A stretch of DNA of 64,000 nt, from positions 7,234-71,233 of IMG/VR virus record IMGVR_UViG_3300019458_000616; one strand, written 5' to 3'. Every line of letters begins with the position of its first letter. The first letter of the stretch is position 1. The notes beneath the pieces were generated by a model. That model did no database searches. It was not told the origin of the DNA and saw only the letters and a program-made list of their open reading frames with translations. Positions 3,009 to 26,653 of the stretch are shown here, piece by piece. A program made the translations under genes and the position numbers. The stretch is from a virus.

Positions 3009-3085
3009 TTGCCTCGAGAGGTCGGGAACTCCACGCGAGGCCCGGGTTTTCCCCTTTCCCCCGGGCCCTCCGATCGGAGGGGGAC

Positions 3086-3101: not shown

Positions 3102-3188
3102 GGACCTCCCTCCGCTCGGAGCCTCCCGACCTTCGATCCGATCGCGCTCGCGTCGAGCACGGGGAGCCGGATCGAGCCGGCGATCCTC

Positions 3189-3894: not shown

Positions 3895-3929
3895 GGCGCC
3901 TCCCGGCAGACGGAAGACGGAGACGCGAG

Positions 3930-5081: not shown

Positions 5082-5083
5082 TC

Positions 5084-5296: not shown

Positions 5297-5673
5297 GGGC
5301 TCGCGTCCGCGTCCGAGGTCCGAGGACCCCCTTCGAGAAGGGGCGGTGGGACCTCCTCTTCGAGAGGGAGGTCCTCGGGCCGCGGCGACGCCACGGCGAG
5401 ATCCTCCGCTACCGCTACGGCGGGATCCGTCTCCTGATCACGGTCTGCGACGTCGACGGGAAGCGGAGCCCGACTTTCTACACGCCGGACTGGTTCGTCC
5501 TCTTTCCCGACGGGGCTGTGGAGCTCTGGGAGGTCAAGGGGTTCTGGCATCGCGACGCTCGACTGAAGGTCAAGCTCGCGGCGGAGGCCTGGCCCGAGTT
5601 TCGGTTCGTCGCCTGGACGCGCCAGACGAAGAAGGAGGGCGGGGGATGGCGGTCGGAGGTCTTCGGGCCGTGA
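5293..5673 (+). CDS. PD-(D/E)XK phage endonuclease (DUF1064-like)
   Basis: FYTPDWFV....VELWEVKGFW..DARLKVKLAA. Confidence 0.72.
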   Translation: MRARVRVRGPRTPFEKGRWDLLFEREVLGPRRRHGEILRYRYGGIRLLITVCDVDGKRSPTFYTPDWFVLFPDGAVELWEVKGFWHRDARLKVKLAAEAWPEFRFVAWTRQTKKEGGGWRSEVFGP

Positions 5674-5936
5674 AAGCGCATGACGTTCGACGGCTGAGGC
5701 CGTGCGCCATCTGCGGGCATCTCGGCCTTCCCGAGGCGTCCGAAGAGGGTCTCGTCGATCTCCTCCGGGCCGGCGAATGTCTCGTCCATGCTCGATGCCT
5801 CTTCCGCGCGGAGGGTGCGTCGGCGCTCTTCGCCCTGCCGGCCGAGGAGCGAGGCAAGGTCCGGGTCAACGACGTGCCGCGAGGCGTGTTCGTCGAACTC
5901 GCCGCCAGGGCGGATCGAGAAGGATACCGTGGCTAA
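5670..5936 (+). CDS. Hypothetical Cys/His-containing protein
   Basis: GTGA overlap; CAICGH and CLVHARC. Confidence 0.5.
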   Translation: MKAHDVRRLRPCAICGHLGLPEASEEGLVDLLRAGECLVHARCLFRAEGASALFALPAEERGKVRVNDVPRGVFVELAARADREGYRG

Positions 5937-6957: not shown

Positions 6958-6958
6958 C

Positions 6959-7231
6959 GTGGTCTCTTTCGCGGGCGGCGGCGAGGAGCGGCTCGAGCTC
7001 CTCGAGACCTCGATCCGGTGGGAGCCGCGGCGGACGCCGGCGGCCGACGTCGCGGGTTGGTTCGGGCGCGTCGTGGAGCAGTTCCGCGGGGCGAAGGGTG
7101 ACCTCGAGACGCTCCAGGTCGAGCAGGTTCCGGTCGAGAAGGAGCCGGGCGTCTACCGGCTCGTCTTCCGCTGCAAGGGACTCCCGGGCGCGGACACGAG
7201 CCGCGCGGTCGAGTTCGGGTGGGGCGGATGA
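6959..7231 (+). CDS. Hypothetical protein
   Basis: Fills the gap in the operon. Confidence 0.5.
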   Translation: MVSFAGGGEERLELLETSIRWEPRRTPAADVAGWFGRVVEQFRGAKGDLETLQVEQVPVEKEPGVYRLVFRCKGLPGADTSRAVEFGWGG

Positions 7232-7422
7232 TCCAGGGGGGAATGGTCGGGATCGAGGGCCGGGAGGCGGACGGGCTCATGCTCGCGAAGAACGACCGCG
7301 GCCTCCGAGCCGCGAATCGCGAGCTCGACCGACGCGGAGTTCCCCGAGAGCATCGTCTGGCGCTTCTCCACGGCGAGGGGTTCGCGCTCTGGTACCTCCG
7401 ACCGAAGGAGGCGCGAGTGTGA
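7228..7422 (+). CDS. Small hypothetical protein
   Basis: ATGA/GTGA coupling on both sides. Confidence 0.45.
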   Translation: MIQGGMVGIEGREADGLMLAKNDRGLRAANRELDRRGVPREHRLALLHGEGFALWYLRPKEARV

Positions 7423-11891: not shown

Positions 11892-12617
11892 ATGGAGGTC
11901 GAGGACGTGAACGGAGCGCGGCGGGTCGTGGTCCTCCTCTCGGGCGGCTACAAGAGTGCGACGCTCGCCTTCGAGCGCCGAAAGGCGGGGGATGACGTCC
12001 TCCTCCTCACGTTCGACTACGGGCAGCGATGCCGCGAGGCGGAGCTCGCGGCCGCGAAGGACGTCGCGGCACTCCTCGAGTCGGACCATGTCGTGGTCCC
12101 CTTCGATCTCCTCACGCGGATCGCCTCGCTCCGGACGAAGGACGACCGCTGGACGTTTCTCGACCCCGAGCTCGAGGCGAGCCGGGTCCGTCAGGACGTT
12201 CTCCCGGCCTTCCCGCTCCTCGCGATCGCCGCGGTCGCCTGGGCCGACTCCGCGCGTCGCGCGTCCGTCTACCTCGGATCGCGCGTCGGCGAGTCGCCCG
12301 TCAACCACTCGCCGCTCGGGGTCAACCTCATGCACTCGATCGCGAGGACCTCGCTCGCCTCGGGTGTCGACGTCATCGCTCCGTACATCCAGACGATCCC
12401 CGGCGAGATCGTCGAGAAGGCCCGACAGGTCGGGGCCTACCCCCACCTCCGCGTGACGCACTCGTGCTACGGGCCGCGTCGCGGCGGCTGCGGCGTCTGC
12501 GAGGGCTGCAAGTGGCGGGCGACGTCCTTCAAGCGGGCCACTCTTCCCGATCCGCTCTCGGCGGACGAGAAGGCGGTCGCGGCGGCGACGGAGCCGAAGC
12601 CGGCGAAGAAGCGGTGA
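11892..12617 (+). CDS. QueC-like PP-loop protein (degenerate)
   Basis: VVLLSGGYKS, TFDYGQR..ELAAAK, HSCY......CGVCEGC..R; true start may be GTG 11907. Confidence 0.75.
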   Translation: MEVEDVNGARRVVVLLSGGYKSATLAFERRKAGDDVLLLTFDYGQRCREAELAAAKDVAALLESDHVVVPFDLLTRIASLRTKDDRWTFLDPELEASRVRQDVLPAFPLLAIAAVAWADSARRASVYLGSRVGESPVNHSPLGVNLMHSIARTSLASGVDVIAPYIQTIPGEIVEKARQVGAYPHLRVTHSCYGPRRGGCGVCEGCKWRATSFKRATLPDPLSADEKAVAAATEPKPAKKR

Positions 12618-13321
12618 GCCCGACACCGTACTTCCTGGATCTCGCTCGAGAGCTCGAGCGTCTCGGTCCGGTCGAGCCGGGCGTCGAGACGATCCGGGCA
12701 GCCGGACGAGGGAATCGCGACGCGCTCGGCGATCTCGTCGTCCTTTCGTTCCCGTTGATCGTCTTCTACCTCCGCGAGCACCCGGAGTGGAGGAAGGGGG
12801 CGGACCCCGAGGATGTCCTCGCGACCGCCGTCGCGGACGTCCGGCACGCCGCGAGAACCTACGATCCCGACAAGGGGGCGTGGCCGACCCATCTCTTCGC
12901 CTACGTCCGGAGAGCCGCGCAGGGGGAGGGACGGAGGAGCGCGTCGATCCGCCTGCCGGACTGGCTCTGGGAGCGGCTCGAGCGGGGCGGGCGGCGAGCT
13001 CGGCGTGAGGTCCACCAGCTCCAGAAGACGGCGACGCGGGCGCTCTGCGTCGCGCGAATGGGTGATTGGAAGGCCCTTCAGATCGCCTCGACCCGGGAGA
13101 CCTGGCCGGACTCCGTTGTGGAGGCACACGATTGTCGAGAGGTCGTTCGCAACCGGATCGCGAAACTCCCCGAACCGCAAAGGCGGGTCCTCGAGCTTCG
13201 GTACGGGATCGGGAGCGGGACTCCCCTCTCCCTGCGGGAGACGGCGTCGCGGACGCGGCTGACGCCGATCGAGGTCCGGATGATCGAGAGCCAGGCGCTC
13301 CGGGCCCTCGGAGCGGCGTAG
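12614..13321 (+). CDS. Sigma-70 family factor (regions 2 and 4)
   Basis: YDPDKGAWPTH..IRLP; LPEPQRRVLELRYGI..LSLRETA..VRMIESQALRAL. Confidence 0.82.
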   Translation: MSPTPYFLDLARELERLGPVEPGVETIRAAGRGNRDALGDLVVLSFPLIVFYLREHPEWRKGADPEDVLATAVADVRHAARTYDPDKGAWPTHLFAYVRRAAQGEGRRSASIRLPDWLWERLERGGRRARREVHQLQKTATRALCVARMGDWKALQIASTRETWPDSVVEAHDCREVVRNRIAKLPEPQRRVLELRYGIGSGTPLSLRETASRTRLTPIEVRMIESQALRALGAA

Positions 13322-13377
13322 ACGAGAAGCCATTCTCCTATCCGCCCCGGAAGAGGCCCCACGCCGGCAAGGCCGAG

Positions 13378-13899
13378 ATGGAGGAACGCCTCCGCCTCGT
13401 CGAGCTTATGCTCTACCGCGGCACGACCTGGGCGGACATGTACCGGGTCGCCAAGGAGAAGTGGGGGGCGGGGCACGGGCACCTCGAGAAGCTCATCCGC
13501 CGGGTCGAGGCCCGCTGGCGGAAGAAGTGGGAGCGCGACCCCGAGCGACTCGAGGCGCGACGAGAGGGGTTCGAGAGCCTCCTCGCCGCCCGGCGGAGCT
13601 GTCATGAGGTCCTCGCCGACCGGTCGACGAAGCCGAGGGAGCGCGTCGCCGCCGCCTCCGCCCTCGCGCGGGTAGAGCTCTCCCTCGCGAAGATCGGCGG
13701 CTACTACGACCCGGACGTCCTCGCCGTTCCTCCGCCGCCGGCGGACGGGAACGAGGGGACGACGCAGCCCGTCGCCGGCGTCGCGGTCGTCGTCGCCTCC
13801 CAGGTCGCCCTCGTCGAGTACATGGGCGTCGTCGTCAGGGAGGCGGAGGGCCGTGTCCTCCAGGCCCCGAGTGCTCCCGTCGAGGCGTCCTCCTCGTGA
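13378..13899 (+). CDS. Probable terminase small subunit
   Basis: N-terminal HTH-like helices, helical core; coupled by GTGA to the TerL ATPase gene. Confidence 0.55.
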   Translation: MEERLRLVELMLYRGTTWADMYRVAKEKWGAGHGHLEKLIRRVEARWRKKWERDPERLEARREGFESLLAARRSCHEVLADRSTKPRERVAAASALARVELSLAKIGGYYDPDVLAVPPPPADGNEGTTQPVAGVAVVVASQVALVEYMGVVVREAEGRVLQAPSAPVEASSS

Positions 13900-14672
13900 T
13901 CGCCCGCCCCGAGCTCGTCGACTTCGTCGCGTTCGCGAGCGCGATCCTCAAGGACGAGTCCCGGCGCCCGCTTCGGCTCGCCGCGCCGCACCTCTCGTGG
14001 ATCCTCCACATCGGCTACTGCTGGGAGCGCGAGCTCGGGGCCCTCATCAATGCGCCGATGGGTCACGGCAAGACGACGCTCTTCTCCGTCGGGTTCCCGC
14101 TCTACCTCCTCGGCCAGGACACGAATCGTCGGATCAAGCTCATCTCGGCAACGGACCCGCTCGCCGCCGACCGCGTCGCTGGCGTCCGGGACTACATCGA
14201 CGGCGATGCGGACTTCCGGACCGCGTGCTCGCATGTTCGACCGTCGATGCTCGACCGCGTCCAGGCGCGGCGGGGCTGGGCTCGCCACAAGCTCCATCTC
14301 CACCGGACGGGCCGGTCGATCGAGGCCTCGCTCGAGGCGCGCGGGATCCTCTCGACCGGCGTAGGGGGGCGCTGCGAGTACGTGGGCTTCGACGACCCCG
14401 TCGACGAGCGCAACGCGGCGAGCGAGGTCATGCGGAAGCGGGTCATCGACGCCTTCGACAAGCTCTGGATGACGCGCCTCGAGCCGTGGGGCCGCTGGTG
14501 GATGATCTCGACGCCCTGGCACCAGGACGACCTGAACCACCATCTCCGGCGGAAGCCGACGGTCTGCACTCTGATCGAGCGGGTCTCCGACGACTACGCG
14601 CACCTCGACTTCGAGATCGTCAACGCGGTCGACGACCGGCATCCGCTCATGCGGTGGCGGGCCGCGGCATGA
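13896..14672 (+). CDS. Terminase large subunit, ATPase domain only
   Basis: Walker A APMGHGKTT, Walker B YVGFDDP, motif III ISTPWHQDDL; stops at 258 aa. Confidence 0.85.
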   Translation: MIARPELVDFVAFASAILKDESRRPLRLAAPHLSWILHIGYCWERELGALINAPMGHGKTTLFSVGFPLYLLGQDTNRRIKLISATDPLAADRVAGVRDYIDGDADFRTACSHVRPSMLDRVQARRGWARHKLHLHRTGRSIEASLEARGILSTGVGGRCEYVGFDDPVDERNAASEVMRKRVIDAFDKLWMTRLEPWGRWWMISTPWHQDDLNHHLRRKPTVCTLIERVSDDYAHLDFEIVNAVDDRHPLMRWRAAA

Positions 14673-16180
14673 CCGAGGAGGGACGGATGACTCGGGCGAC
14701 CCGGAAGAGGCGTGGGATGGTCCCGCCGATGCCGCGCGAGGGGGACCCGGCGGCCGAGTGGGTGTCGCTCGCGACCATCCACCCGTGGGAGCGGAACCCC
14801 CGCGTCATCCCCGATCGGTTGATCGAGAAGCTCGCGGAGACGATCCGGAAGCTCGGGTGGGGGCCTCCGATCGTCGCCCGCGCGTCCGATCGGAGGATCG
14901 TCGCCGGCCACGCGCGGCGGCTCGCGGCCATGAAGCTCGGGCTCGAGCTCGTCCCGGTCCGCTTCGTCGACCTCGACGACGATCGGGCGGCGGCGATGGC
15001 GCTCGCCGACAACCGTCTCGGCGAGGAGGCGGCGTGGAGCGAGGACGACCTCGCGGCTGTCTTGCGGGGGATCGAGGATGAGCCCCTTCGACTCCTTGCG
15101 GGCTTCGAGGCCGACGAGCTCGACGACCTCCTCAACGAGGGGGGAGGTCCCGACGGGGCGAATGCTCCGAGCCTCGCCGAGCGCTTCCTCGTGCCCCCCT
15201 TCTCGGTGCTGGACGCGCGGCAGGGTTACTGGCAAGAGCGGAAGCGCGCCTGGATCGGGCTGGGGATCAAGTCGGAGCTCGGTCGCGCGTATGCGGTCCC
15301 GCCCGGCGGTAGTCCCCGTCCCGCCGCGAAGCTCGGGCGGGACGGGAAGACGGTTCGAGGCGATGGCTCGGGGCGTCCCCTCAATCTCAAGACCTGGAAC
15401 GGCGTGGGGCAGGAGGACCCGGTCTCGCAGAAGATCGAAGCGGCGGGCGTCTGCAGCGTCTTCGATCCGGTTCTCTGCGAGATCGTCTATCGATGGTTCG
15501 CGCCGCCGGCCGGACGCGTCCTCGATCCGCTCGCCGGCGGGAGCGTCCGCGGCCTCGTCGCTTCGCGGCTTGGCCGAGCCTACGTCGGAGTCGAGCTCCG
15601 CCCCGAGCAGGTTGCCGCGAATCGCGAGCAGGGAGAGAGGATCGCGCGTTCGGCGGACCCCGCCCCCGTCTGGATCGAGGGCGATGCTCGTGACGTAACC
15701 GTTCTGGCGGCCGAGCGCGCCCCCTTCGACCTCCTGTTCTCCTGTCCGCCCTACGCCGACCTCGAGCAGTACAGCGATGATCCCCGCGACCTCTCGGTCC
15801 TCGAGTATCCGGCCTTCCTCGCCGCGTATGGCGCGATCATCCGCGAGTCCGTCGCGCTCCTTGCCCCCGATCGCTTCGCGGTGTTCGTCGTCGGAGAGGT
15901 CCGGGAGCCCAAGGCCGGCGGCGCCTATCGCGGCTTCGTCCTCGACACGATCCGCGCCTTCGAGCAAGCCGGCGCGCGCTTCTACAACGAGGCCGTCCTC
16001 GTGACCATGTGCGGGTCGGTCTCCATCCGCGCGGGCCGGCAGTTCGCGACGTCGCGCAAGCTCGGGAAGACGCACCAGAATGTCCTCGTCTTCTGTAAGG
16101 GAAGCCCGACGCGGGCGACGCGAGCCTGCGAGCCCGTGGTCGTCGGCGACCTCACCGAGGCCTTCCGAGACGCGGTCTGA
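14669..16180 (+). CDS. ParB-N domain / DNA methyltransferase fusion
   Basis: ERNPR..GWGPPIV..IVAGHARRLAA..LADNRLGE; VLDPLAGGSVRG, GVELR, FSCPPY. Confidence 0.86.
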   Translation: MTEEGRMTRATRKRRGMVPPMPREGDPAAEWVSLATIHPWERNPRVIPDRLIEKLAETIRKLGWGPPIVARASDRRIVAGHARRLAAMKLGLELVPVRFVDLDDDRAAAMALADNRLGEEAAWSEDDLAAVLRGIEDEPLRLLAGFEADELDDLLNEGGGPDGANAPSLAERFLVPPFSVLDARQGYWQERKRAWIGLGIKSELGRAYAVPPGGSPRPAAKLGRDGKTVRGDGSGRPLNLKTWNGVGQEDPVSQKIEAAGVCSVFDPVLCEIVYRWFAPPAGRVLDPLAGGSVRGLVASRLGRAYVGVELRPEQVAANREQGERIARSADPAPVWIEGDARDVTVLAAERAPFDLLFSCPPYADLEQYSDDPRDLSVLEYPAFLAAYGAIIRESVALLAPDRFAVFVVGEVREPKAGGAYRGFVLDTIRAFEQAGARFYNEAVLVTMCGSVSIRAGRQFATSRKLGKTHQNVLVFCKGSPTRATRACEPVVVGDLTEAFRDAV

Positions 16181-16231
16181 AGCCATCCGCGGGGAAGCCT
16201 CCCGAAGGGAGGCGTCGATGCCTCCCGGCGA

Positions 16232-16247
16232 GTTAAGGGGACTTAAC
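16232..16247. promoter_or_regulatory. Palindrome copy 3 GTTAAG-GGGA-CTTAAC
   Basis: 12 bp before ATG 16260; preceded by hairpin GCCTCCC-GAA-GGGAGGC. Confidence 0.85.
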
Positions 16248-16259
16248 GTGCCGGAGAGC

Positions 16260-16442
16260 ATGACGGACGCGGAGATCCGGGCCGAGATCGAGCGACTCGA
16301 CGCGGACTCGGACTTCGACGTCGACGACTACGAGGCCGACTTCATCGACGGCGTCCTGAGTCGCGGCCGGTCGAGTTTCACGCCGAAGCAGCGGGACTTC
16401 GCGATCAGGCTCATCGACAAGTGGCGGCGCCGGCGGACGTGA
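16260..16442 (+). CDS. Small acidic hypothetical protein
   Basis: GGAG upstream; GTGA-coupled to the primase gene. Confidence 0.6.
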   Translation: MTDAEIRAEIERLDADSDFDVDDYEADFIDGVLSRGRSSFTPKQRDFAIRLIDKWRRRRT

Positions 16443-17380
16443 ACGGCGAGCGCCGCCTCGGCGCGCTCGCATCCGCGGCGTCCCTCTTCCGCGAGCTCCT
16501 CGTCTCCCCCCCGGGACGGCAAGCCCGGACCTATCTCGACGGTCGCGGGATCGGCGCCGGCCCCGAGTGCGACGCCTACCTCCTTGGCTATGCGCCGGAG
16601 AGGCCCGTCCTCCTCGAGCGGCTCCGGTCCGAGGGATTCCTCCCCGACGACGTCGTCGATGCCGGCCTCGCGAAGCGGCGCGACGACGGGAAGCTTGTCG
16701 TCCGGTTCCGTAACCGGATCGCCTTCCCCGTCCGGGACCTCGACGGTGCGGTGGTCGGCTTCTCCTGCCGGGCGCTCGATGACGAGCGACGGCCGAAGTA
16801 CCTCAACGGCCCCGAGACGCCGCTCTTCCGGAAGCGGTCCCTCCTCTACGGGCTCTTCGAGCTCCTCGCCGCGACCGGCCGTCCCGACGTCGCCGTGATC
16901 GTCGAGGGCCAGATGGACGTCCTCGCCCTTCGCCGCGTCGGCTGCGGAGCGGTCTCGCCCCTTGGAACCGCGTTCTCGGGGCCGCACGCTCGAATCCTCG
17001 CACGCTACTTCCGCGACGTCGTCTTCCTCTTCGACGCCGACGAGGCCGGCGAGGCGGCCGCCCGGCGCGCCCTTCTCGAGGTTGCCTGGGCGGGTCGGCG
17101 GCTCTTCACGTCCCTCCGGGTCGCGACGCTCGACGAAGGCTCCGACGACCCCGCCGCCGTCGTCCTCGCGAAGGGCCCGAGGCCGATCGAGGTCGCTCTC
17201 CGGGAGGCTCGGGACTTCGCGGGGGTCTTCTCGTCGACGCGCGAGGGGTTCGGAGACGCCTGCGCCGTCGCCCTCGCCCTCGGCGACGCCGACGAAGCGG
17301 CGGAGCTCGTCGCGGACGCCCACGGCGTCTCGGTCGAAGTCGCGCGCCGCGGGATGCGGAAGATTGCCGCCTCGGCCTGA
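16439..17380 (+). CDS. DnaG primase catalytic core/TOPRIM lacking the zinc-binding domain
   Basis: RFRNRIAFPVRD..GAVVGFSCR..PKYLNGPETPLF; VIVEGQMDV, LGTA, FLFDADEAG. Confidence 0.88.
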   Translation: MNGERRLGALASAASLFRELLVSPPGRQARTYLDGRGIGAGPECDAYLLGYAPERPVLLERLRSEGFLPDDVVDAGLAKRRDDGKLVVRFRNRIAFPVRDLDGAVVGFSCRALDDERRPKYLNGPETPLFRKRSLLYGLFELLAATGRPDVAVIVEGQMDVLALRRVGCGAVSPLGTAFSGPHARILARYFRDVVFLFDADEAGEAAARRALLEVAWAGRRLFTSLRVATLDEGSDDPAAVVLAKGPRPIEVALREARDFAGVFSSTREGFGDACAVALALGDADEAAELVADAHGVSVEVARRGMRKIAASA

Positions 17381-17399
17381 TCCCCGGAAGGCTCCGGAC

Positions 17400-17699
17400 A
17401 TGAAGGCGAAGCGAGCCCGGCGAGCGGGGAGCGAGGACGATCTCCTCGCCGCGCTCGAGGCGGACGTCGGCGAGCAAGAGCGTGCGAGGCGTCCCTTCCC
17501 CGGCCCGAGGGGCGGCGAGGCGCTCGTCGCGGTCGCGCGCGAGAGGCTCGCGATCCCGTTCGCCGAGTACCCGGACACGGTCTTCGAGTGGCGTGACGGG
17601 GTCTGGACGATTCGCGAGCCCATGAGCGGGAGAACCTGGGAGGTCCTCATGGGGCCGGCCGGGGAGCCGGTCTTCGATCTCGTCGATGGGGAGGAGTGA
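17400..17699 (+). CDS. Hypothetical protein
   Basis: ATG start; coupled to the next gene. Confidence 0.5.
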   Translation: MKAKRARRAGSEDDLLAALEADVGEQERARRPFPGPRGGEALVAVARERLAIPFAEYPDTVFEWRDGVWTIREPMSGRTWEVLMGPAGEPVFDLVDGEE

Positions 17700-18127
17700 C
17701 GATGATCATGCACCCCGTCAAGAGCACGAACGTCCGATCGGTGGGCTACGACGGAGCTCGCCGGACGCTCCGGATCCTCTTCCAGAACGGGGCCCTCTAC
17801 GAGTACGCGGGCGTCGCGTTCGAGGTCTACGACGCGCTTCTCGATGCGCCGAGCAAGGGACGGTTCGTCCACGACCACGTCAAGGACCGTTACCCCCATC
17901 GGAAGGTAGATCCCGAGGCCGAGAAGGACGAGCCCGTCGCCTGCATGGACGCGATGTGCCCGAGGTGCAGGAAGCGCTTCGGGTGGCGCGGCCGCGTCGT
18001 CGATCGGCCTCCCTGCCCGGGCTGCGGGCACCAGATCGCGCGCGAGATCCTCGAGCGCGATCAGGCGGAGATCGACCGTTTCTTCGCTGAGCTGGACGCG
18101 GAGAACCGCAAGGCGGCGGACCGATGA
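17696..18127 (+). CDS. KTSC domain protein with C-terminal Zn ribbon
   Basis: VKSTNVRSVGYD..TLRILFQNGALYEY..V..EVYDALLDAPSKGRF; CPRC..CPGC. Confidence 0.8.
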   Translation: MTMIMHPVKSTNVRSVGYDGARRTLRILFQNGALYEYAGVAFEVYDALLDAPSKGRFVHDHVKDRYPHRKVDPEAEKDEPVACMDAMCPRCRKRFGWRGRVVDRPPCPGCGHQIAREILERDQAEIDRFFAELDAENRKAADR

Positions 18128-18471
18128 GGATCGGAGGGGACGGGCCGCCGCTGCATGTCTCCGCTCGGTGCGGGCGCTCGGACTGTCCGGGCCTCTTCGT
18201 CCCTCCGGAGTTCTTGCCGCGACCGACCCGGTACCGCGTCCGGATCGTCGTCCCCGTCGTCGGCCTCGCCGACCGCCGCGTCGAGATCGAGACGGGGCTC
18301 CCGCTCTGCGATCTCTGCGCGCCGAAGGCGCCGCATCAGGTCCAGGAAATCCTCGACGCCTTCCGGGTCGTGTACGACGTCGCGAAGCGATTCCAGGTCC
18401 CCGCCGGCTTCTCGCCCTCAGAGTCCCTGGCGCGGGTCGAGCTCGTCCCCGTCTTCGGGGGCGGGTCGTGA
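18124..18471 (+). CDS. Hypothetical zinc-binding protein
   Basis: CGRSDC..CDLC; ATGA overlap. Confidence 0.5.
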   Translation: MRIGGDGPPLHVSARCGRSDCPGLFVPPEFLPRPTRYRVRIVVPVVGLADRRVEIETGLPLCDLCAPKAPHQVQEILDAFRVVYDVAKRFQVPAGFSPSESLARVELVPVFGGGS

Positions 18472-18773
18472 GGATTAGCGCCCCGGGGCCCGGCCGGCGA
18501 TGGAAGCCGTCTCCGCACGGCCCCGAGCACGGCGTCGCCGTTCAGACCGTCGAGCGCCGGCACGACCTCCGGCTCGAGCTCGTCGTCTTTCTCACGCTGC
18601 AGGACTTCTCGTTCCGGGTCGTCGACCGCGCCGGCGCCGTCCTCCGCGCGGGGACGTACGAGCCCTGGCCCGGCCGATGGGATCTCGTCGTCGAGGCCGG
18701 CCGTCAGGTCTTCGCGCGGCTCCGCGCGGCCACGGACGCGGCGCACCTACGGTCTTCATCGAGGAGGACTTGA
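18468..18773 (+). CDS. Hypothetical protein
   Basis: GTGA overlap. Confidence 0.45.
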   Translation: MRISAPGPGRRWKPSPHGPEHGVAVQTVERRHDLRLELVVFLTLQDFSFRVVDRAGAVLRAGTYEPWPGRWDLVVEAGRQVFARLRAATDAAHLRSSSRRT

Positions 18774-18801
18774 TGCGAGTCTGCCTTGCCGACGTCCCGG
18801 G

Positions 18802-19539
18802 ATGGCTCCCGTTCGTCCTCGACGTCGGGACCCCGGCGCCGCGTCGCCTCCGGCGCCGGTCGATCATGACGAGGCCGTCCTCTGGCGGCGCTATCGCGAA
18901 ACCCGATCGACCGAGGACCGAAACGCGATCGTGTGTCGCTACGTCCGATGTGCCGAGACCGACGCGTTCGTCTACGCGTTCAGGCAAAGGACGATCGCGA
19001 GGTGGGGGCTCCGGGACGAGGACCTCCGGACCTTCGCCTACGAGGCGCTCCTCGACGGCGTCGAGCGGTTCGAGAACGAGCCCCATCGCTTCCGGGCCTT
19101 CCTCGCTCAGCGCATTCGCTGGCGGATCGCCGACGGCCTCCGGCTTGGCGAGTCCGCGTGCCTCGCGTGCTCCTACCGGCGTCACGGACGCCGCCTCCCC
19201 GTCTACGGGAGCCTCGACCAGGTCGCGTTCGTCGACAACGAATCCGGGGATGCCGTCACCTACCTCGAGCTCCTCCCGGCAACCGAAGTCCTCCCTCGCG
19301 ACGACGGTGACGAGGGGTTCGAGGCGCTTCTTGCGCTCGTCGACCGGCCCGTCGATCGAACCATCCTCGACCTCTACTTCCGCCATGGTCTGACGATGCG
19401 GGCCATCGGCTTCGCGGTGGGCATCTCCGAGAGCCGGGTGAGCCAGCGCGTCTCCGCCGCGCTCTTCCGGCTGCGGGCGATCCTCGAGGCCCGGGAAGGC
19501 TCCGGTAGGTGCCTCTCGAGGGCCGTCCTCTCGGGTTAA
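18802..19539 (+). CDS. FliA/WhiG-like sigma-70 factor
   Basis: LWRRYRETRSTEDRNAIV..Y; LDLYFRHGLTMRAIGFAVGISESRVSQ; start uncertain. Confidence 0.82.
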   Translation: MAPVRPRRRDPGAASPPAPVDHDEAVLWRRYRETRSTEDRNAIVCRYVRCAETDAFVYAFRQRTIARWGLRDEDLRTFAYEALLDGVERFENEPHRFRAFLAQRIRWRIADGLRLGESACLACSYRRHGRRLPVYGSLDQVAFVDNESGDAVTYLELLPATEVLPRDDGDEGFEALLALVDRPVDRTILDLYFRHGLTMRAIGFAVGISESRVSQRVSAALFRLRAILEAREGSGRCLSRAVLSG

Positions 19540-19550
19540 GGCGCCTTAAC
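19535..19550. promoter_or_regulatory. Palindrome copy 4 GTTAAG-GCGC-CTTAAC
   Basis: Contains the sigma stop; 21 bp before the TTG start of the second ParB. Confidence 0.85.
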
Positions 19551-19571
19551 CTCGCGTCGAGGAGGGTCGCC

Positions 19572-21170
19572 TTGAAGGTCGAGCCGATCGCCCCCGTTCT
19601 CCTCCATCCGTGCCCGAAGAACCCGCGCGGCGAGATCACCCCCGACTCGGTCGCCGAGCTCCGAGCATCGATCGAGTGCGACGGGCAGAAGCAGCCGTGC
19701 CTCGTCCGGCCCCGCGCCGGCCATCCCGGCGAGTACGAGATCGTCCTGGGCCACCGCCGGGCGAAGGTCGCCGAGCTCCTCGGCCTGGACGCCCTCTGCG
19801 TCGTCGAGGACCTTACGGACGCTCAGGTCGAGGCGCTCGTCATTGCCGAGCACGAGTCGTGGAAGGCCCAGGATCCGTTCCGTCAGGCCGAGGTCGTCGC
19901 CTCCCTCCTCGATCGCCCCGGCTGGAACGTCAAGGCCGTCGCCGACCATCTCTCGAAGCCGATCCGGTGGGTCGCCGCCCGCGCGAACCTCAAGAACCTC
20001 GACGAGTCCGTCCGGGCGCTCGTCGCGAAGAACAAGGCCGGCGCCGGTGACTGGCCCGTCTCCTGGCTCGAGGAGGTCGCGAAGCTCGATCCGGCCTCCC
20101 AGCACGAGCTCGCGAAGGAGCTCTCGAACTCCCACTGGCGGATCGACAGCAAGGACCGGCTCGACCGGCTCCTCGCCGAGAAGCTCCACGTCCTCGGCAA
20201 GGCGCCCTGGAAGCTCGACGACGCGACCCTCCTCCCTCGCGCGGGCCCCTGCGAGACCTGCCCGAAGACGTCGCTCCGGAGCCCCGGCCTCTTCGACGAC
20301 GAGCTCGAGGAGGCCGACGTCCGCAAGGCCGTCTGCCGCGACGGGACCTGCTGGAACGCGAAGCTCGGGGCCCATGTCCTCCTCCAGGTCGAGAAGGCGA
20401 AGGTCGAGAACCCGAAGACGGTCCTCCTCAAGCGTCACGTCCACTCGGCCCGCGAGATCCTCCCGGGTCTCGAGGAGCACGTCGAGAAGGCGGAGGTGGA
20501 GTGGCGCTTCGACAAGGCGAAGAAGGGCGAGAAGGGCGCCGTCCCGGCGATCGTCGTCGTCGGCGACGACGCCGGCCGGAAGGAGTGGGTCCTTCCGAGG
20601 AAGGAGAGCGACTACGGGCGCCCGAGGAAGGAGAAGAAGCCGGCCGCCGAGCGGTCCACGAAGGAGAAGCTCGAGGACTCGAGGGAGCGGATCTCGCGAC
20701 GGCGCATGGCGCATGTCGTTGACGCGGTCCGGACGGCGATCGACGAGGAGAAGGTCGCGGTTCCCGACGCCGAGAAGCTCCGCTCGCTCGTCGCCGTCTA
20801 CGGGGTCCCGCATCCCGAGAAAGCCTGGATCGGCTCCGGCTACGTGGCCGAACGGAAGAAGCTCTGGAAGGCGGTCGCCGACGACGAGTCCGCCTGGGCC
20901 TCCGAGCTCTGGCGGCGGCTCCTCGAGAACCTCGTCGGCTGCCTCCGGCGGTTCAACCCGACGATCCTCGAGAAGGAGCACGAGGAGGCGACCTGGCTCG
21001 CGGGCGTCCTCGGCCTCGACATCGCCGAGCTCGAGGCCGCCGCGCGGAAGGAGATCCCCGATCCGCGATGGTGGGCGGCCGCCGAGACGAAGACCTCCGA
21101 GACGACGGCGAAGAAGAAGAAGCGCGGGAAGAAGGTCGCATCGAAGAAGCGGACGAAGGCGAGGGCCTGA
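19572..21170 (+). CDS. ParB/Spo0J-family protein with HTH and long C-terminus
   Basis: KNPRG..ELRASIECDGQKQPCLVRP..YEIVLGHRRAKVA..DPFRQAE..VKAVADHLSKPIRWVAAR; SD GAGGAGG before TTG. Confidence 0.86.
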   Translation: MKVEPIAPVLLHPCPKNPRGEITPDSVAELRASIECDGQKQPCLVRPRAGHPGEYEIVLGHRRAKVAELLGLDALCVVEDLTDAQVEALVIAEHESWKAQDPFRQAEVVASLLDRPGWNVKAVADHLSKPIRWVAARANLKNLDESVRALVAKNKAGAGDWPVSWLEEVAKLDPASQHELAKELSNSHWRIDSKDRLDRLLAEKLHVLGKAPWKLDDATLLPRAGPCETCPKTSLRSPGLFDDELEEADVRKAVCRDGTCWNAKLGAHVLLQVEKAKVENPKTVLLKRHVHSAREILPGLEEHVEKAEVEWRFDKAKKGEKGAVPAIVVVGDDAGRKEWVLPRKESDYGRPRKEKKPAAERSTKEKLEDSRERISRRRMAHVVDAVRTAIDEEKVAVPDAEKLRSLVAVYGVPHPEKAWIGSGYVAERKKLWKAVADDESAWASELWRRLLENLVGCLRRFNPTILEKEHEEATWLAGVLGLDIAELEAAARKEIPDPRWWAAAETKTSETTAKKKKRGKKVASKKRTKARA

Positions 21171-21173
21171 GCC

Positions 21174-21353
21174 GTGCCCGTCCCTCCGCCTCGCATGTTC
21201 CGGCTCCCGCGCCGACCGCCGCGCGCCGCGAGCCTGCTCCATGCCCTCTTCTGCCTCGCCTGGATCGACTGGCGGTACGGCCTCCTCGAGTCCGCCGAGT
21301 TCGCGCGCCTTCATGCCGTGATCCTCGACCTCAAGCGGTCCCTCGTCTCGTGA
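21174..21353 (+). CDS. Small hypothetical protein
   Basis: 59-codon ORF below the track cutoff; GTGA-coupled. Confidence 0.4.
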   Translation: MPVPPPRMFRLPRRPPRAASLLHALFCLAWIDWRYGLLESAEFARLHAVILDLKRSLVS

Positions 21354-21616
21354 TCGTCGTCCGCTTCGAGCTCTGGCCCGCCGGCTCGCGCGAGCGCGCC
21401 GTCTCGCTCGGCGAGATGCGGATCGCGAACGACCTCTCCGGGTCGCCGACCGTCGGGAACTACGAGGTCCGGATCTCGAAGAGCGCCGTCTACTCGAGGC
21501 GTCCGGGCTCGAGCTGGAGGGATGGCCGGATCGAGGGCTTCCCCCGCCGGTGGCTTGGGCCCTGGGATCCCCTCCTCCGTGCCCTCAAGGCCTGCGGGCT
21601 CGAGTGCCGGCGATGA
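21350..21616 (+). CDS. Phage hypothetical protein
   Basis: IVVRFELWP..LGEMRIAND..GNYEV pattern; coupled both sides. Confidence 0.55.
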   Translation: MIVVRFELWPAGSRERAVSLGEMRIANDLSGSPTVGNYEVRISKSAVYSRRPGSSWRDGRIEGFPRRWLGPWDPLLRALKACGLECRR

Positions 21617-21861
21617 TCCCCGACCGCTTCAACGTCGGGCGGTTCCACGTTGGCCGGACCCTTCTTCGGGTCTCGGCGGTCGGCTGCGTCTCCTGCGGGA
21701 CCCGGCGGGCCGGGGGCTGGACCACGGCGCGGGACGTCGAGGTCACGGTTGCCGGGAAGACAAAGCGGATCGCCCTCCCCCTCTGTGCGGAGTGCCGGGC
21801 CCGGATCGTGATCGAGCCGATCCGGCCGCCGGCGTTCCTTGATCGAGGTCGTCGATCATGA
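21613..21861 (+). CDS. Small zinc-finger-like protein
   Basis: CVSC..CAEC. Confidence 0.5.
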   Translation: MIPDRFNVGRFHVGRTLLRVSAVGCVSCGTRRAGGWTTARDVEVTVAGKTKRIALPLCAECRARIVIEPIRPPAFLDRGRRS

Positions 21862-22196
21862 GCTTCGTGAATGGGTCCTGCCTCGTCGAGCGTCTCCGGC
21901 TCCTCTCCGACGCGGTAGCGGCCGGGAAGGTTCCGGACCCGGAAGATGTTGCCGAGCTCGTCCACGCGGCCCGAGAGGCCGCCGATCTTCTCCAGCGCTT
22001 GGAGGATGATGAGGTCGACCGTGCCGCGAACCTCGCGCCCGGATGCGACCCGGTCGCGGAGGTGGAGCGGTTGCGCGGCCTCGCCTCCGAGGCCCTGCGC
22101 GATCTTCAGGACCTTCCCGGCTCGCCACCCGACCTCGTGTCCGCGCGGGGGTGGCTGATCGGGATCGTCGGGAGCGGCGCGAGGAGGGGGTCGTGA
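21858..22196 (+). CDS. Hypothetical protein
   Basis: ATGA overlap. Confidence 0.5.
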   Translation: MSFVNGSCLVERLRLLSDAVAAGKVPDPEDVAELVHAAREAADLLQRLEDDEVDRAANLAPGCDPVAEVERLRGLASEALRDLQDLPGSPPDLVSARGWLIGIVGSGARRGS

Positions 22197-22705
22197 TGCG
22201 CGCCCTCTCGCTCTGGCAGCCGTGGGCGAGTTTCGTCGATGCCGGGTTGAAGACCGTCGAGACGCGGTCGTGGGGGACCGACTACCGCGGCGAGGTCGCG
22301 ATCCACGCGGCGCATCGCCGCCCGCGGCTCGAGGAGGGGGAGGCGATCCTCCGCGCCGCCGGGCCGAACCTTGGCCTCCGCGTCCTGGATGTGATGGATC
22401 GACCTCCCGCTCTCGGCGCCGTCGTCGCCGTGGCTCGGATTTCGGCCTGCTTCCGTGTCCTGAGCGCGGCCGACTGCGGGCACCGCCTATGGGTCGCGGC
22501 GGCTGCCACGCCCGGAGGGGCGTCGGTTTCGCCGGTCGAAGCCGTTCTGGGCGACCTCTCACCGGGGCGCTTCGCGTGGCTGCTCGCGGACATCCGCCCG
22601 CTACGCGAGCCCCACCCGCTCCGCGGGCGCCAAGGGCTCTGGACGCTCTCGGCCGAGGAGGATCGGGCGATCCGTGCCCTCGCGTCTCCGCGCGGGGGGA
22701 CGTAG
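22196..22705 (+). CDS. ASCH domain protein
   Basis: ALSLWQPWASF..GLKTVETRSW..YRGEVAIHAA; P.RGRQGLW. Confidence 0.82.
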   Translation: MRALSLWQPWASFVDAGLKTVETRSWGTDYRGEVAIHAAHRRPRLEEGEAILRAAGPNLGLRVLDVMDRPPALGAVVAVARISACFRVLSAADCGHRLWVAAAATPGGASVSPVEAVLGDLSPGRFAWLLADIRPLREPHPLRGRQGLWTLSAEEDRAIRALASPRGGT

Positions 22706-22711
22706 AAGGGG

Positions 22712-23524
22712 ATGGACTTCCGCGGACGCCTCCCCGGCTGGGTCGATCGCTGGGGCCCCGCCGCCCTTCGCAAGCGCGAGCTGGAGATCGGCCCCCGTGC
22801 CTTCGCCCAGGGCTACCGGATGCGGCCGTACGCGTCCGAGGAGCTCGCCTTCCCCCACTTCGAGCGGGCCCTCGAGCTCGGCCTCCGCGAGTCGATCCCC
22901 GAGCCGCTCCCGCGCGACTGGGTCCGGTTCGTCGGCGTCGACCTCTCGTCCGCCAAACGTCCGGGCAACGTCGCCTTCGCCGCGGCCGTCGACGCTCATG
23001 GCGTCCGCCGCCCGCTCGACGTCGTGCGGATCAAGGGGAGTTCGCCGGCGGTCGCCCGCGCGATCGGCGGCGTCGTCGAGCGATGGCGACCCCAGGCCGT
23101 CGTCGTCGAGAACAACGGCTACCAGGCGGCGCTCGAGGAGTGGGTCCGTGAGCTCGGCGGCCGGTTCCCCTGGTGGCCGCTCATCGTCCCGTTCCTGACG
23201 GGCTCGAACAAGGCGGACCCGGTGCTCGGGCTCCCCGGCCTCGACGTCGAGTTCGCGAACGGGGCGTGGGTCGTGCCGCGGGAGCTCAACCCGCGGGCGA
23301 ACGGCCACCCGCTCTACTGCGAGTGCGGTCCCTGCGTCTGGGTCGCCGAGACGCTCGCCTACCCTCACGGGCGGGCGACGGACACGGTCATGGCGATGTG
23401 GTTCTGCCGCGAGGGCATCCGGGGCTGGCTCGAGTCCGCCGCCTCGCGCGGCGAGGACGAGCTCGTTGCGCCCCGCCGGCGGGGCGAGTTCTTCGACGGG
23501 ATCCCCGAGGACGAGATCGCATGA
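22712..23524 (+). CDS. Terminase large subunit, RNase H-like nuclease domain only
   Basis: RW..ALRKRELEIGPRAFAQGYRMRP, FVGVDLS, VVVENNGYQ, YPHGRATDTVMA; own purine-rich SD and ATG. Confidence 0.8.
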   Translation: MDFRGRLPGWVDRWGPAALRKRELEIGPRAFAQGYRMRPYASEELAFPHFERALELGLRESIPEPLPRDWVRFVGVDLSSAKRPGNVAFAAAVDAHGVRRPLDVVRIKGSSPAVARAIGGVVERWRPQAVVVENNGYQAALEEWVRELGGRFPWWPLIVPFLTGSNKADPVLGLPGLDVEFANGAWVVPRELNPRANGHPLYCECGPCVWVAETLAYPHGRATDTVMAMWFCREGIRGWLESAASRGEDELVAPRRRGEFFDGIPEDEIA

Positions 23525-23709
23525 GCGAGCGACTCCCCGAGTGCTGGCGCTTCGTGCGGATCTCGTCCGCGGTCCTCTTTGTCGCGCCCGAGGACGGGAA
23601 GCTCCTCATGAACGTTGCTTGGCAGCTCCCGAGCTGCGTCGGTGGCGACGTCGGTGTCGAGATCTGGCCCATCCCGGACGAGGCGCCGAAGGAGCGTGTG
23701 CGTCCGTGA
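23521..23709 (+). CDS. Small hypothetical protein
   Basis: ATGA overlap. Confidence 0.5.
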   Translation: MSERLPECWRFVRISSAVLFVAPEDGKLLMNVAWQLPSCVGGDVGVEIWPIPDEAPKERVRP

Positions 23710-23894
23710 AGGCCTTCGCGGCGGTTGTCGTCCGCGCCGCCCGGGAGCGGGCGCTCCTCGAGGCGGAGGCCCGTCTCCGGACCGCCGCCGTCGACTTCGC
23801 CGAGCGGGGCGAGACCGCGCGTCTCGCGCTCGAGTGGGCCGCCCTCGAGTACGCGAAGGCCTCCAGCGCCCGCCGAGGGGCGGCCGATCCGTAG
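23706..23894 (+). CDS. Small hypothetical protein
   Basis: GTGA overlap. Confidence 0.5.
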   Translation: MKAFAAVVVRAARERALLEAEARLRTAAVDFAERGETARLALEWAALEYAKASSARRGAADP

Positions 23895-23905
23895 TCGGCG
23901 GGCCC

Positions 23906-24365
23906 CTACCTCACCTTGGAGTTCTTGCCGGCGTCTTTGAGCTTGGCGTCGAGCTGGGTCTTCTTCTTCGCGAGCTGGGCGGGCTGAACATAGTAGAAGT
24001 CGAACAACGCCTCAAGGACCGCAAGGTTGGACTCAGCCTCGCGAGGTTCGACGGGGACTATCTGTCCGGTACTCTGGCTCTTCTCGGGATGAGCCGCGAA
24101 GTTCCCGATCACACGGGACTTCCGGCGGACAGGGGCCCCGGCTTGAGGCTTTCGGATAGATCAAGCGAGATGGTCGTCGACTCTTGAAGTAGGGGTTGCC
24201 GTCCATGTCTTCGTCAACGACCCCCGAGAAGAGATAGAGAATCCAGTTCCCGCATTCTGGGCAAAGCGCGTACTCGATCGCGTAGCAGTAACCGTCGCCA
24301 GTTCCATCTAGGAAAGCCGTCTTAGACACGTAGTGAAACGCAACGGTGCAGTGGGGGCACTTCAT
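23906..24365 (-). pseudogene. DUF4145/HEPN-like gene with internal deletion and frameshift
   Basis: MKCPHC..IYPKASSRGPCPPEVP joins out of frame to RVIGNFAAH..EPREAE.NL.VLEALFDFYYVQP near 24115; lower GC; SD GAGGAGG; TATAAT upstream at 24411-24416. Confidence 0.7.
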
Positions 24366-24567
24366 TCTCACGCCTCCTCGCCGTCGTCAAACATCTCTGA
24401 CTCGGGGTCGATTATAGATGCATCCCCTGACATCTCCTGGGCCTACCCTCTCCATGCCCTAGCCCGGCGCGCTCCGGGAGGGCGGGCGGCCGTCCTTCCT
24501 GAGCGAGATTCCCTCCCTCGCGACCCGCGGCCCCTCGCCCTCCCGGGCTCGCCTCGCGGGGTGGCGG

Positions 24568-24583
24568 GTTAACCCTCCTTAAC
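24568..24583. promoter_or_regulatory. Palindrome copy 5 (variant) GTTAAC-CCTC-CTTAAC
   Basis: 27 bp upstream of the portal start. Confidence 0.8.
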
Positions 24584-24610
24584 CTGCCGGCGAGGGACGG
24601 AGAGCGCGAC

Positions 24611-26653
24611 TTGGGGCTCCTCGATCGGGTTCGCCGTGCCTGGGAGGCTTTCCGAGGGGCCTCCGAGGTGACGATCTTCGACCCGTACGCGCTCCCTGAG
24701 GACGACGAGCGCCAATGGGAGCTCCTCTCCTCCGGTTCCCGGCTCATTCCCGAGGGCCGGAAGACGGTCCCCGAGGAGGACCGTGTCGGCGTCCGGCTGA
24801 AGGTCCGGCGGCTCGTCCTCGCGAACGCCCACATGCGCGGCGTCCTCCGGCGCTATGTTTCCTACGTCCTCGGCCGAGGACCCCAGCCGAAGTTCCCCCA
24901 GGGGCCGAAGGAGCTCCGGGACGCCCTCGCCCTCGCCTGGAAGCGGTTCGTCCGGACGGCGAACTGGCGTCGGCGCAAGCGCGAGATCCTCGTCCGGCTC
25001 CTCCGCGACGGCGAGGTCTTCATCCGCCGGTTCTCCGTCGAGCGCGCCGTCGCTCCCGATGGCGGTCCCGAGACGGCGACCGAAGCCCGCGCCGCGCGGA
25101 CGATCCCCTGGAAGGTCCTCGCGCCCCGGTTCATCGATCCCGAGCTGATCAAGGACCCGCAGACCGGGAGCGAGGAGGGCGGGATCGTCACCGAGGAGGG
25201 CGACGTCGAGACGATCCAGAGCTTCAAGAAGGTCAAGGCGTCGAACCCGAAGGAGCTCGACGAGGAGATTCCGGCGACGGATGTCCTCTTCCACGCCTGC
25301 GAGTCCGACCTTTGCGAGAGGCGCGGCGTCTCCCCCTTCGCCTCGATCGTCCCCTACGTCGACCTCTACGGTTCCTGGCTCCGGGACCGGATCGTCCTCT
25401 CGAAGGTCCGCTCCGCGGTCGCGCTCGTCCGGACGTTCGACAAGAAGGAGCAGCAGGTCAAGGCGTTCCTCCAGAAGGAGCAGGACGAGGCGGACGACCA
25501 GCGCGCCAAGTGGGGCGAGACGAAGCCGCATCCGAACGTCGAGGTCCGGCAGAAGAAGTTCCGGCCGGGGACCGTGATCAATGCCGGCCGCGGGGTCGAC
25601 TACAAGTTCATCTCGCCGAACCTCCAGGCCGCGGACGTCCATCACGACGGGCGCGCCATCCTCCTCGCCGTCGCCGCCGGCGCCGGCCTCGCCGAGTTCA
25701 TGGTCTCGGGCGACGGCTCGAACGCGAACTACGCGTCGACCATGGTCACGGAGGGCGTCCCGGTCAAAGAAGTCGAGGACTGGCGCGAGGTCACGTCGGA
25801 CGTCCTCACGCCGCTCTGGGTCTGGGTCGTCGAGGTCGACCGCGAGAACCCGGGATCGAAGATCCCCGCAAGCTACGACCCCTGGGAGGTCGAGTGGGAG
25901 TACCCCCCGATCGTCTCACGGGACCGCGAGAAGGAGGTCCGCTCGAACGTCGCCATGGTCGCCGCCGGGGCGATGAGCCGGCGGACGGCCATGGAGCGCG
26001 ACGGCCTTGATCCCGACACGGAGCTCGAGCGGATCGAGGCGGAAGAGGTCGAAGACCTCGGGCGCGAGGACGAGGAGGACGGGGGCGAAGGAGGCGAAGG
26101 CGACCGTCGCCCTCGCCCGCGTGGTCCGACCCGAGGAGACGACGAGGGCGATGACGAAGAGGCGCGCGAGAGCTTCCTCGAGGACGAGGACCGACGTCCC
26201 ACGCGCATTCGAGAGGAGGACGACGAGCTCGCCGGTCGCGTTGCCGCTCTCGAGGCGGACGCCCGCGTCCGCGCGGCGGCGCCTCCGGCGCCCGCGCCCA
26301 AGATCGAAGCGCATGTCCACGTCCCGAAGCAGGATCCTCCGGTGGCGAACGTCAAGGTCGAGGCGCCCGTGAAGATCGAGAAGGGCGCGATCGAGGTCGA
26401 CGCCCGGACGACGATCGCGGAAGGCGCGGTCAAGGCAACGACGACCGTCGAGGCTCCGGCTCCGGTGCCCGCGCCGCCGCCTTTGCCGCCGTTGCCGGCC
26501 CCGTCGGTCCAGGTCGTCTTCGAGAAGGGCGCGATCCAGAACGATGTCAACGTCCCCGAGCCCCGACCGCGGAAGCTCGACCTCGATGTTCGGGTCGGAC
26601 CCGACGGCTCGGTGACGGGGATCTCCGGGTCGAGCCGACCCGAGGGAGTGTGA
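24611..26653 (+). CDS. Portal protein (lambda-like family) with long C-terminal extension
   Basis: RRLVLANAHMRG..YVLGRG, RRGVSPF, GDGSNANYAS, EWEYP..DREKE. Confidence 0.88.
   Translation: MGLLDRVRRAWEAFRGASEVTIFDPYALPEDDERQWELLSSGSRLIPEGRKTVPEEDRVGVRLKVRRLVLANAHMRGVLRRYVSYVLGRGPQPKFPQGPKELRDALALAWKRFVRTANWRRRKREILVRLLRDGEVFIRRFSVERAVAPDGGPETATEARAARTIPWKVLAPRFIDPELIKDPQTGSEEGGIVTEEGDVETIQSFKKVKASNPKELDEEIPATDVLFHACESDLCERRGVSPFASIVPYVDLYGSWLRDRIVLSKVRSAVALVRTFDKKEQQVKAFLQKEQDEADDQRAKWGETKPHPNVEVRQKKFRPGTVINAGRGVDYKFISPNLQAADVHHDGRAILLAVAAGAGLAEFMVSGDGSNANYASTMVTEGVPVKEVEDWREVTSDVLTPLWVWVVEVDRENPGSKIPASYDPWEVEWEYPPIVSRDREKEVRSNVAMVAAGAMSRRTAMERDGLDPDTELERIEAEEVEDLGREDEEDGGEGGEGDRRPRPRGPTRGDDEGDDEEARESFLEDEDRRPTRIREEDDELAGRVAALEADARVRAAAPPAPAPKIEAHVHVPKQDPPVANVKVEAPVKIEKGAIEVDARTTIAEGAVKATTTVEAPAPVPAPPPLPPLPAPSVQVVFEKGAIQNDVNVPEPRPRKLDLDVRVGPDGSVTGISGSSRPEGV

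Follow-up and report, generated by a model that had tools for sequence, protein, structure and literature searches.

A large terminase split into ATPase and nuclease genes 8 kb apart in a provirus-class IMG/VR record

Textbooks describe the large terminase subunit (TerL) as a motor-nuclease on a single chain, and its gene serves as the standard marker for tailed phages. In herpes simplex virus 1 (HSV-1), the terminase gene UL15 is interrupted, and its parts are joined by mRNA splicing to give a single protein. Interrupted terL genes have also been described in phages: group I introns interrupt terL of the Jug phages (PMC12880540), an intein interrupts that of cyanophage Mic1 (PMC7156551), and terL of Streptomyces phage Hau3 carries a short bypassed insert (PMC10732093). 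A further variation is offered by phi29-type gp16, a packaging ATPase with a vestigial, inactive nuclease domain (PMC7672431). Here we analyse a 64,000-nucleotide stretch of viral DNA (the window), bases 7234-71233 of the 74,414-bp IMG/VR record IMGVR_UViG_3300019458_000616, in which the ATPase and nuclease halves of TerL are encoded by two genes 8 kb apart. The canonical architecture, with ATPase and nuclease on one polypeptide, is absent from this locus. Most likely this is a genuine two-chain TerL kept by selection, derived by fission from a one-chain T7-like (PHROG 38) ancestor, with halves that reassemble non-covalently. The features on which this reading depends are the following.

13896..14672, plus strand: TerL ATPase half, 258 amino acids (aa); phrog_38 match, T7-type TerL profile match, AF2 model
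22712..23524, plus strand: TerL nuclease half, 270 aa; phrog_38 match, AF2 model, Foldseek/VIA
24611..26653, plus strand: portal protein; Pfam Phage_portal_2 E 9.7e-21, phrog_21 E 2.8e-26

The ATPase half begins at a GTG that overlaps the stop of the upstream gene as GTGA. An earlier note, made from the sequence alone, had recognised in it Walker A and B motifs and TPWHQDDL followed by a stop, and all of these are present: Walker A APMGHGKT (residues 53-60, with K59), Walker B VGFDDP (161-167, with D166/D167) and motif III STPWHQDDL (205-213, with T206), after which the reading frame ends with TGA at 14670-14672. K59, D166, D167 and T206 are invariant in an alignment of 9 ATPase-half homologues. 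The protein matches positions 271-466 of the 760 positions of phrog_38, “terminase large subunit” (E 8.7e-26), a profile search matched T7-type TerL 8dgc_E and 4bij, and Pfam Terminase_6N scores 14.4 bits, under its cut-off of 22. The AF2 model (pLDDT 89) superimposes on residues 15-250 of the PhiV-1 TerL 8dgc_E with a VIA Z of 21.2 and a root-mean-square deviation (rmsd) of 3.0 over 223 aligned residues, followed by HK97 TerL (Z 17.4) and the ATPase domains of T4 gp17 and P74-26 (Z 16.1). The half has the ASCE P-loop fold, Walker A, Walker B and motif III (C-motif) by which a TerL ATPase domain is recognised.

The nuclease half has the N-terminus MDFRGRLPGWVDRWGPAALRKRELEIGPRAFAQGYRMRP and contains GVDLS, VENN and TD..MA. 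Its ATG is preceded by AAGGGG, lying right behind the TAG of an ASCH-like open reading frame (ORF), in line with the separate Shine-Dalgarno sequence and start codon ascribed to it earlier. Residues 1-40 form a helical linker/lid, an RNase H/RuvC-like nuclease follows from about residue 41, and the C-terminal tail is acidic. The proposal that this gene begins with the segment that normally follows the ATPase and holds the RNase H acidic residues is borne out: it matches positions 488-628 of phrog_38 (E 7.2e-10), directly the later part of the profile matched by the ATPase half, and D77, E133 and D224 are invariant in the homologue alignment of 17 sequences. No Pfam match was obtained. In the AF2 model (pLDDT 83.5), residues 40-247 align with residues 295-536 of 8dgc_E, the top match of both Foldseek and VIA (Z 15.4, rmsd 2.9, 183 aligned). 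The next nearest structures are the G20c, HSV-1 pUL15, D6E, Sf6 and T4 nuclease domains; G20c reaches Z 15.3, and the rmsd is 2.8-2.9 over 164-183 residues for 8dgc_E and G20c. The three conserved acidic metal-binding residues on an RNase H/RuvC-like fold are those of a TerL nuclease.

The two halves belong to the same TerL clade, as both are nearest to 8dgc_E and fused relatives match both profiles in one chain. The portal gene lies 1.1 kb downstream of the nuclease half, which is the usual terL-to-portal placement; the ATPase half sits elsewhere. A six-frame phrog_38 search of the whole 74-kb record matched only the two halves, and no intact terL or other terminase was found in it.

Alignment of the junction with fused relatives revealed full collinearity and put the break inside a variable-length loop flanked by the conserved “HPL(M/Y)” and “LPLW”. 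The crystallised nuclease domains of G20c (255-442), T4 gp17 (360-561) and P22 (289-482) start at about residue 41-45 of the nuclease half, and full-length Sf6 gp2 aligns from its residue 1 (chain residues 170-465); the nuclease gene thus carries about 40 residues of the linker/lid region of a one-chain TerL. A break between the domains, as first suggested, is therefore correct as regards the two genes and imprecise as regards the border: the canonical nuclease domain starts some 40 residues downstream of the break, and the linker/lid lies on the nuclease side.

Stand-alone homologues were gathered by word-indexed searches, and their neighbourhoods were checked with hidden Markov models built from the two half alignments. 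Stand-alone ATPase halves are 253-273 aa long and share 41-57% identity; for stand-alone nuclease halves the ranges are 237-307 aa and 29-57%. Overall, conservation of the stand-alone form extends to identities of about 35-40%. Fused, adjacent and dispersed arrangements are all present among these relatives, as listed below.

L013, L014, L016-L019 and many more distant loci: fused one-chain TerL, the two profiles back to back
L096: adjacent two-gene arrangement, ATGA overlap
L097: adjacent two-gene arrangement, 8-nt spacer
L003: dispersed, both halves on the contig, one gene and 0.9 kb between
L010/L015: dispersed, both halves on the contig, 5.3 kb and ~16 small genes between, ATPase half fused to a KTSC domain
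L007: dispersed, partner off the stretch read, >9.3 kb of replication genes downstream of the ATPase half
L005, L006, L012: dispersed, partner off the stretch read, no ATPase within >10 kb upstream of the nuclease half in each
L098, L008, L009: dispersed, partner off the stretch read, no ATPase within 3.5, 5.3 and 5.9 kb, respectively, upstream of the nuclease half

In the fused chain of L014, the ATPase-half profile covers residues 9-263 and the nuclease-half profile residues 271-516. On a larger scale, the nuclease-half profile gave 2959 matches at E up to 1e-3 among 1.84 billion cluster representatives (50% identity). The best 150 of these comprise 77 fused proteins, 61 stand-alone nuclease halves that are complete, each with a start residue and 241-307 aa long (median 265), 8 fragment-like sequences and 4 others. 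The general expectation that TerL is almost always one polypeptide fails in this TerL family, about 40% of whose nearest sequence clusters, counted over those best 150, are of the split kind. A quick, unrooted maximum-likelihood tree of 152 nuclease domains (LG+G4) places the window in an all-split clade of 9 rows (SH-aLRT 99), with split and fused states interleaved: parsimony gives 33 changes, of which the starred branches force at least 15, and, the tree being quick and unrooted, each of these may be a fission or a re-fusion. Relatives among isolated phages were found neither by megablast of 13000-25000 nor by tblastn of the nuclease half; the ATPase half matched only one-chain TerLs there, at 24-32% identity. 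An alignment search of viral contigs with the ATPase half returned no relatives, nor did the nuclease-half protein alone against genome contigs, and the nuclease alignment gave no usable pattern there.

Several relatives show peculiarities of their own. In L010 (3631-4713) a KTSC domain occupies the C-terminus of a 360-aa ATPase half, in the same place as in L015 (3619-4716). In L011 (3656-4866) a nuclease-half homologue is broken over two overlapping frames (profile positions 6-34, then 34-236), possibly through a frameshift or a sequencing error. In two close relatives, HNH endonuclease genes (L098 1390-1950; L008 4131-4643) precede the stand-alone nuclease half by less than 2 kb, recalling the HNH proteins that assist HK97-type terminases. 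The fused members P0040, P0119, P0122, P0128, P0140, P0143, P0150, P0151, P0162 and P0177 reach 830-1226 aa, with large inserts in or ahead of the ATPase domain that are likely inteins or added domains, and in P0054 (544 aa) the nuclease domain is N-terminal, with ~300 unassigned residues after it.

The split is neither damage nor misassembly. A 69.5-kb Logan contig, built from the same reads by another assembler, spans 12500-25000 with 0 differences and no gaps, so that the misassembly envisaged in the earlier note is not seen at either end. No contig joining the two halves was observed; the “joints” listed in the contig table, whose sides measure just 20-23 nt, derive from other contigs of this GC-rich metagenome, and none connects the halves. 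Both ORFs have the codon-position G+C typical of real genes, with third-position values (GC3) of 0.82 and 0.94. The record is classed by IMG/VR as a provirus with a completeness rating of 88%, and, as prophages often decay, the halves might be remnants of a terL broken and scrambled by rearrangement. This is the least credible of the explanations considered: both ORFs are intact, with strong coding GC3 and invariant catalytic residues, the same split recurs in relatives of 35-57% identity that include non-provirus viral contigs, and the phage retains its portal, MuF, tape-measure, tail, DNA polymerase, helicase and primase genes.

How two such chains could work together is suggested by structure prediction. 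Modelled as a complex, the halves reach an ipSAE of 0.86, against 0.02 for the best control; in calibration, 58 of 80 solved complexes and 2 of 110 mismatched pairs scored this high. Contacts are shared between runs to at least 97%, and both partners have pLDDT of at least 82. The predicted interface brings ATPase-half residues 227-256 together with nuclease-half residues 1-20, and nuclease-half residues 33-42 are placed in contact with Walker A (54-57) and motif III (206-212). Binding of the halves is thereby supported by the model, which falls short of a demonstration. The two-subunit motor assembled in trans that the earlier note envisaged gains support from this docking model and from the conservation of stand-alone halves at variable spacing.

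Under the two-chain reading, an ancestral one-chain T7-like TerL would have been split by gene fission in a variable surface loop that follows the ATPase core and precedes the helical linker/lid, itself ahead of the nuclease domain. The two products would be translated separately, the ATPase half from a block of QueC, sigma factor and X (the gene of unassigned family just upstream of it), and the nuclease half from its position just upstream of the portal gene. According to the model, the C-terminal strand of the ATPase chain (~236-244) would pair with the N-terminal strand of the nuclease chain (2-9), and the first helices of the nuclease chain would pack on Walker A and motif III. The resulting heterodimer at the portal would cut concatemeric DNA and pump it into the procapsid, as a one-chain TerL does. 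That the two chains associate physically, form a composite ATP site and are expressed at separate times is the inferred part of this scheme. It is intriguing to speculate, and we do so tentatively, that the nuclease-chain lid (~1-45) completes the ATPase site in trans, which would leave the motor inert until the nuclease half appears from its own portal-proximal block, apart from the sigma factor and DNA-metabolism genes among which the ATPase half sits, and turn fission into a checkpoint in the timing of packaging. If this were the case, the repeated fission or fusion, with no fewer than 15 changes on the tree, would point to an evolvable regulatory solution, and splitting might alter recognition by TerL-sensing defence proteins of the Avs type.

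Several considerations weigh against a working two-chain TerL. The alignments behind the complex model were unpaired, and its score may echo likeness to one-chain TerLs, because such structures are solved. Sequence and modelling are the sources from which production and binding of the two proteins are deduced. Separately expressed domains of T4 gp17 reportedly did not reconstitute packaging in vitro and, if this is right, a working split is not a given. The assembly check draws on a different assembler but not on different data, and a second terminase could lie outside the record, which is 88% complete and inside a longer host contig.

A rival idea is that the halves have become functionally independent and form no stable complex, the ATPase serving, for example, as a DNA translocase alongside replication or early genes and the nuclease acting alone as a resolvase or terminase nuclease. 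The different neighbourhoods of the halves would suit such a division, as would the QueC-X-ATPase block kept in L007, the fusion of the L010/L015 ATPase half to KTSC instead of the nuclease, and the nuclease fold, which is the same as that of RuvC resolvases. On balance we regard independence as unlikely: the record yielded no further packaging ATPase, and the docking segments, that is, the ATPase tail and the first 40 residues of the nuclease half, are conserved in the stand-alone forms, collinear with fused TerLs, and are exactly where the complex model is confident.

The two halves are separated by 8039 bp (14673-22711). With gene calls based on homology and per-frame G+C, about 10-12 plausible ORFs can be counted there, fewer than the fourteen genes first proposed; six have a family assignment from Pfam/PHROG scans, marked F below.

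14669 or 14687 to 16180, plus strand: ParB-N6/N4 methyltransferase fusion (F)
16421-17380, plus strand: DnaG primase core (F)
17696-18127, plus strand: KTSC protein (F)
18124-18471, plus strand: ORF
18802-19539, plus strand: sigma factor (F)
19509-21170, plus strand: ParB/KorB-like protein (F)
within 14673-22711, plus strand: small ORFs
about 22043-22705, plus strand: ASCH-like/phrog_3193 gene (F)

If the halves were joined by a mechanism that escaped observation, such as programmed removal of the 8-kb block from the DNA upon induction, or trans-splicing of RNA or of protein, traces of the corresponding elements would be expected: a ribozyme at exon borders for a group I/II intron; IntN and IntC with Cys/Ser/Thr and extra length for a split intein; a site-specific recombinase gene and junction repeats for a skin-like excisable element. 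As the earlier note had maintained, none of these signatures is seen. In a cmscan of 12000-26000 (E up to 1), the only match was a sub-threshold one to a fluoride riboswitch, and no Rfam intron emerged; Pfam revealed neither an intein nor a Hint domain; repeats, direct or inverted, were not found at the two junctions; and the intervening genes scanned with Pfam/PHROG gave no integrase or recombinase family. The sequences also leave no room for a split intein, as 258 + 270 aa equals a fused TerL of ~520-540 aa, aligned without extra segments, so that neither half has spare length. The intervening block varies in content and length among relatives and holds essential-looking genes (primase, sigma factor and, in L007, DNA polymerase), the own start and stop of each half are conserved in relatives, and no contig joins them. 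Joining by any of these routes is accordingly very improbable, and two separately translated chains remain the preferred reading.

At the upstream border of the block, 14669-14672 is a genuine ATGA overlap between the stop of the ATPase half and the next ORF, as had been noted; the start of the ParB-methyltransferase gene, for which that overlap had been taken, more probably lies at ATG 14687, behind GAGGAGGG. At the downstream border, the ASCH-like/phrog_3193 ORF (22043-22714) is in frame with the nuclease half, separated from it by one TAG and two codons, and readthrough would fuse them; this adjacency is not kept in the relatives examined, and the in-frame arrangement is therefore probably a coincidence. 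The DnaG-type primase ORF comprises the catalytic core and Toprim domains, and a zinc-binding domain was not detected in it. The free KTSC gene between the halves, considered together with the KTSC fusion in L010/L015, could mean that KTSC and the split terminase are functionally linked.

A 16-bp palindrome, GTTAAG-N4-CTTAAC, occurs in 12 copies in the window against 0.01 expected, 10 of them perfect and 2 with one mismatch, mostly between gene blocks.

3086, 11874, 16232, 19535, 24568, 32174, 36723, 43963, 46760, 54484, 57216, 63792 (window positions): GTTAAG-N4-CTTAAC copies

From its sequence and placement, the palindrome is a candidate operator or promoter element. The copies at 11874, 16232, 19535 and 24568 flank separate blocks in which the ATPase half and the nuclease half lie, so that the two belong to different units. 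From the gene positions we infer different times of expression for the halves; separate control or stoichiometry of the two, suggested in the earlier note, would be conceivable. Three genes precede the ATPase half.

11892-12617, plus strand: QueC-like gene; tblastn to L007, L005 and L006
12614-13321, plus strand: sigma factor; phrog_351, E 3.8e-10
13318..13899 (start approximate), plus strand: gene of unassigned family, upstream neighbour of the ATPase half, its stop overlapping the GTG of the latter

The neighbourhood QueC-(sigma)-X-ATPase half, where X is the 13318-13899 gene, is common to the window and L007, in which X is kept in the same place (tblastn to L007 1696-2142, E 1e-18). X has no Pfam or PHROG match and a protein atlas search was uninformative; a role as the small terminase was considered for it and, for want of such a match, not confirmed. 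On the other side of the nuclease half, two small minus-strand ORFs (23906-24371) lie in a lower-GC patch (~55-60%) ahead of the portal gene and resemble an inserted moron.

The record as a whole has a G+C content of ~70% and carries nearly all of its genes on the plus strand. The single public run that contains this DNA is a cave metagenome, which is probably the source sample; no RNA run is listed as containing it. Replication and recombination are represented by ParB-like proteins, a UvsX-like recombinase, an exonuclease, the DnaG primase core, a DnaB-like helicase and a family A DNA polymerase, alongside several sigma factors; the structural genes include portal, MuF-like head protein, tape measure and tail proteins. 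Minus-strand tail/baseplate-like genes are found at one end of the record and a helicase at the other (L094, record bases 1-7300; L095, 71000-74414). Since these end genes are phage-like, the borders of the 74-kb “provirus” cut through phage genes, and the element may extend into the ~200 kb host contig.

A natural lineage in which ATPase and nuclease are separate offers a ready-made system for studying communication between the two activities, including how the lid contributes to ATP hydrolysis, how the nuclease is turned on and off, and how the motor is tethered to the portal. There is also a practical side: as the nuclease half is blank in Pfam and the ATPase half sub-threshold, pipelines seeking one terL of ~500 aa will miss or mis-score such phages. 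In the literature we found only intron-, intein- or bypass-interrupted terL and no terminase described as two separately translated genes, most subscription journals being outside the search.

Compared with known systems, the closest is the one-chain T7-type TerL (T7 gp19; PhiV-1 8dgc_E; PHROG 38), with which the split enzyme shares the ATPase fold and motifs, the RNase H-like nuclease with its acidic triad, and the position of the nuclease gene upstream of the portal. It differs in consisting of two polypeptides, encoded by genes 8 kb apart with their own starts and stops, and in carrying ~40 linker/lid residues on the nuclease chain. In layout, the nearest analogue is the two-exon herpesvirus terminase gene (HSV-1 UL15; human cytomegalovirus UL89), likewise interrupted by kilobases of unrelated genes, and the nuclease half resembles the herpesvirus nuclease structures (4iox, Z 15.3; 6ey7, Z 14.1). 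Unlike UL15, the locus described here has no intron signature, and each half has its own conserved translational start and stop. The terL genes of the Jug phages and Mic1 are also spread over several ORFs in the DNA, but RNA or protein splicing turns them back into a single chain, and what has been inserted is the mobile element. At the present locus, 8 kb of ordinary phage genes intervene, and no ribozyme or Hint domain was found. With phi29 gp16 the split terminase has in common a packaging ATPase uncoupled from an active nuclease. However, phi29 needs no cutting, as its genomes are unit-length and protein-primed, whereas here an intact nuclease with all its catalytic residues is kept as a separate gene by the portal.

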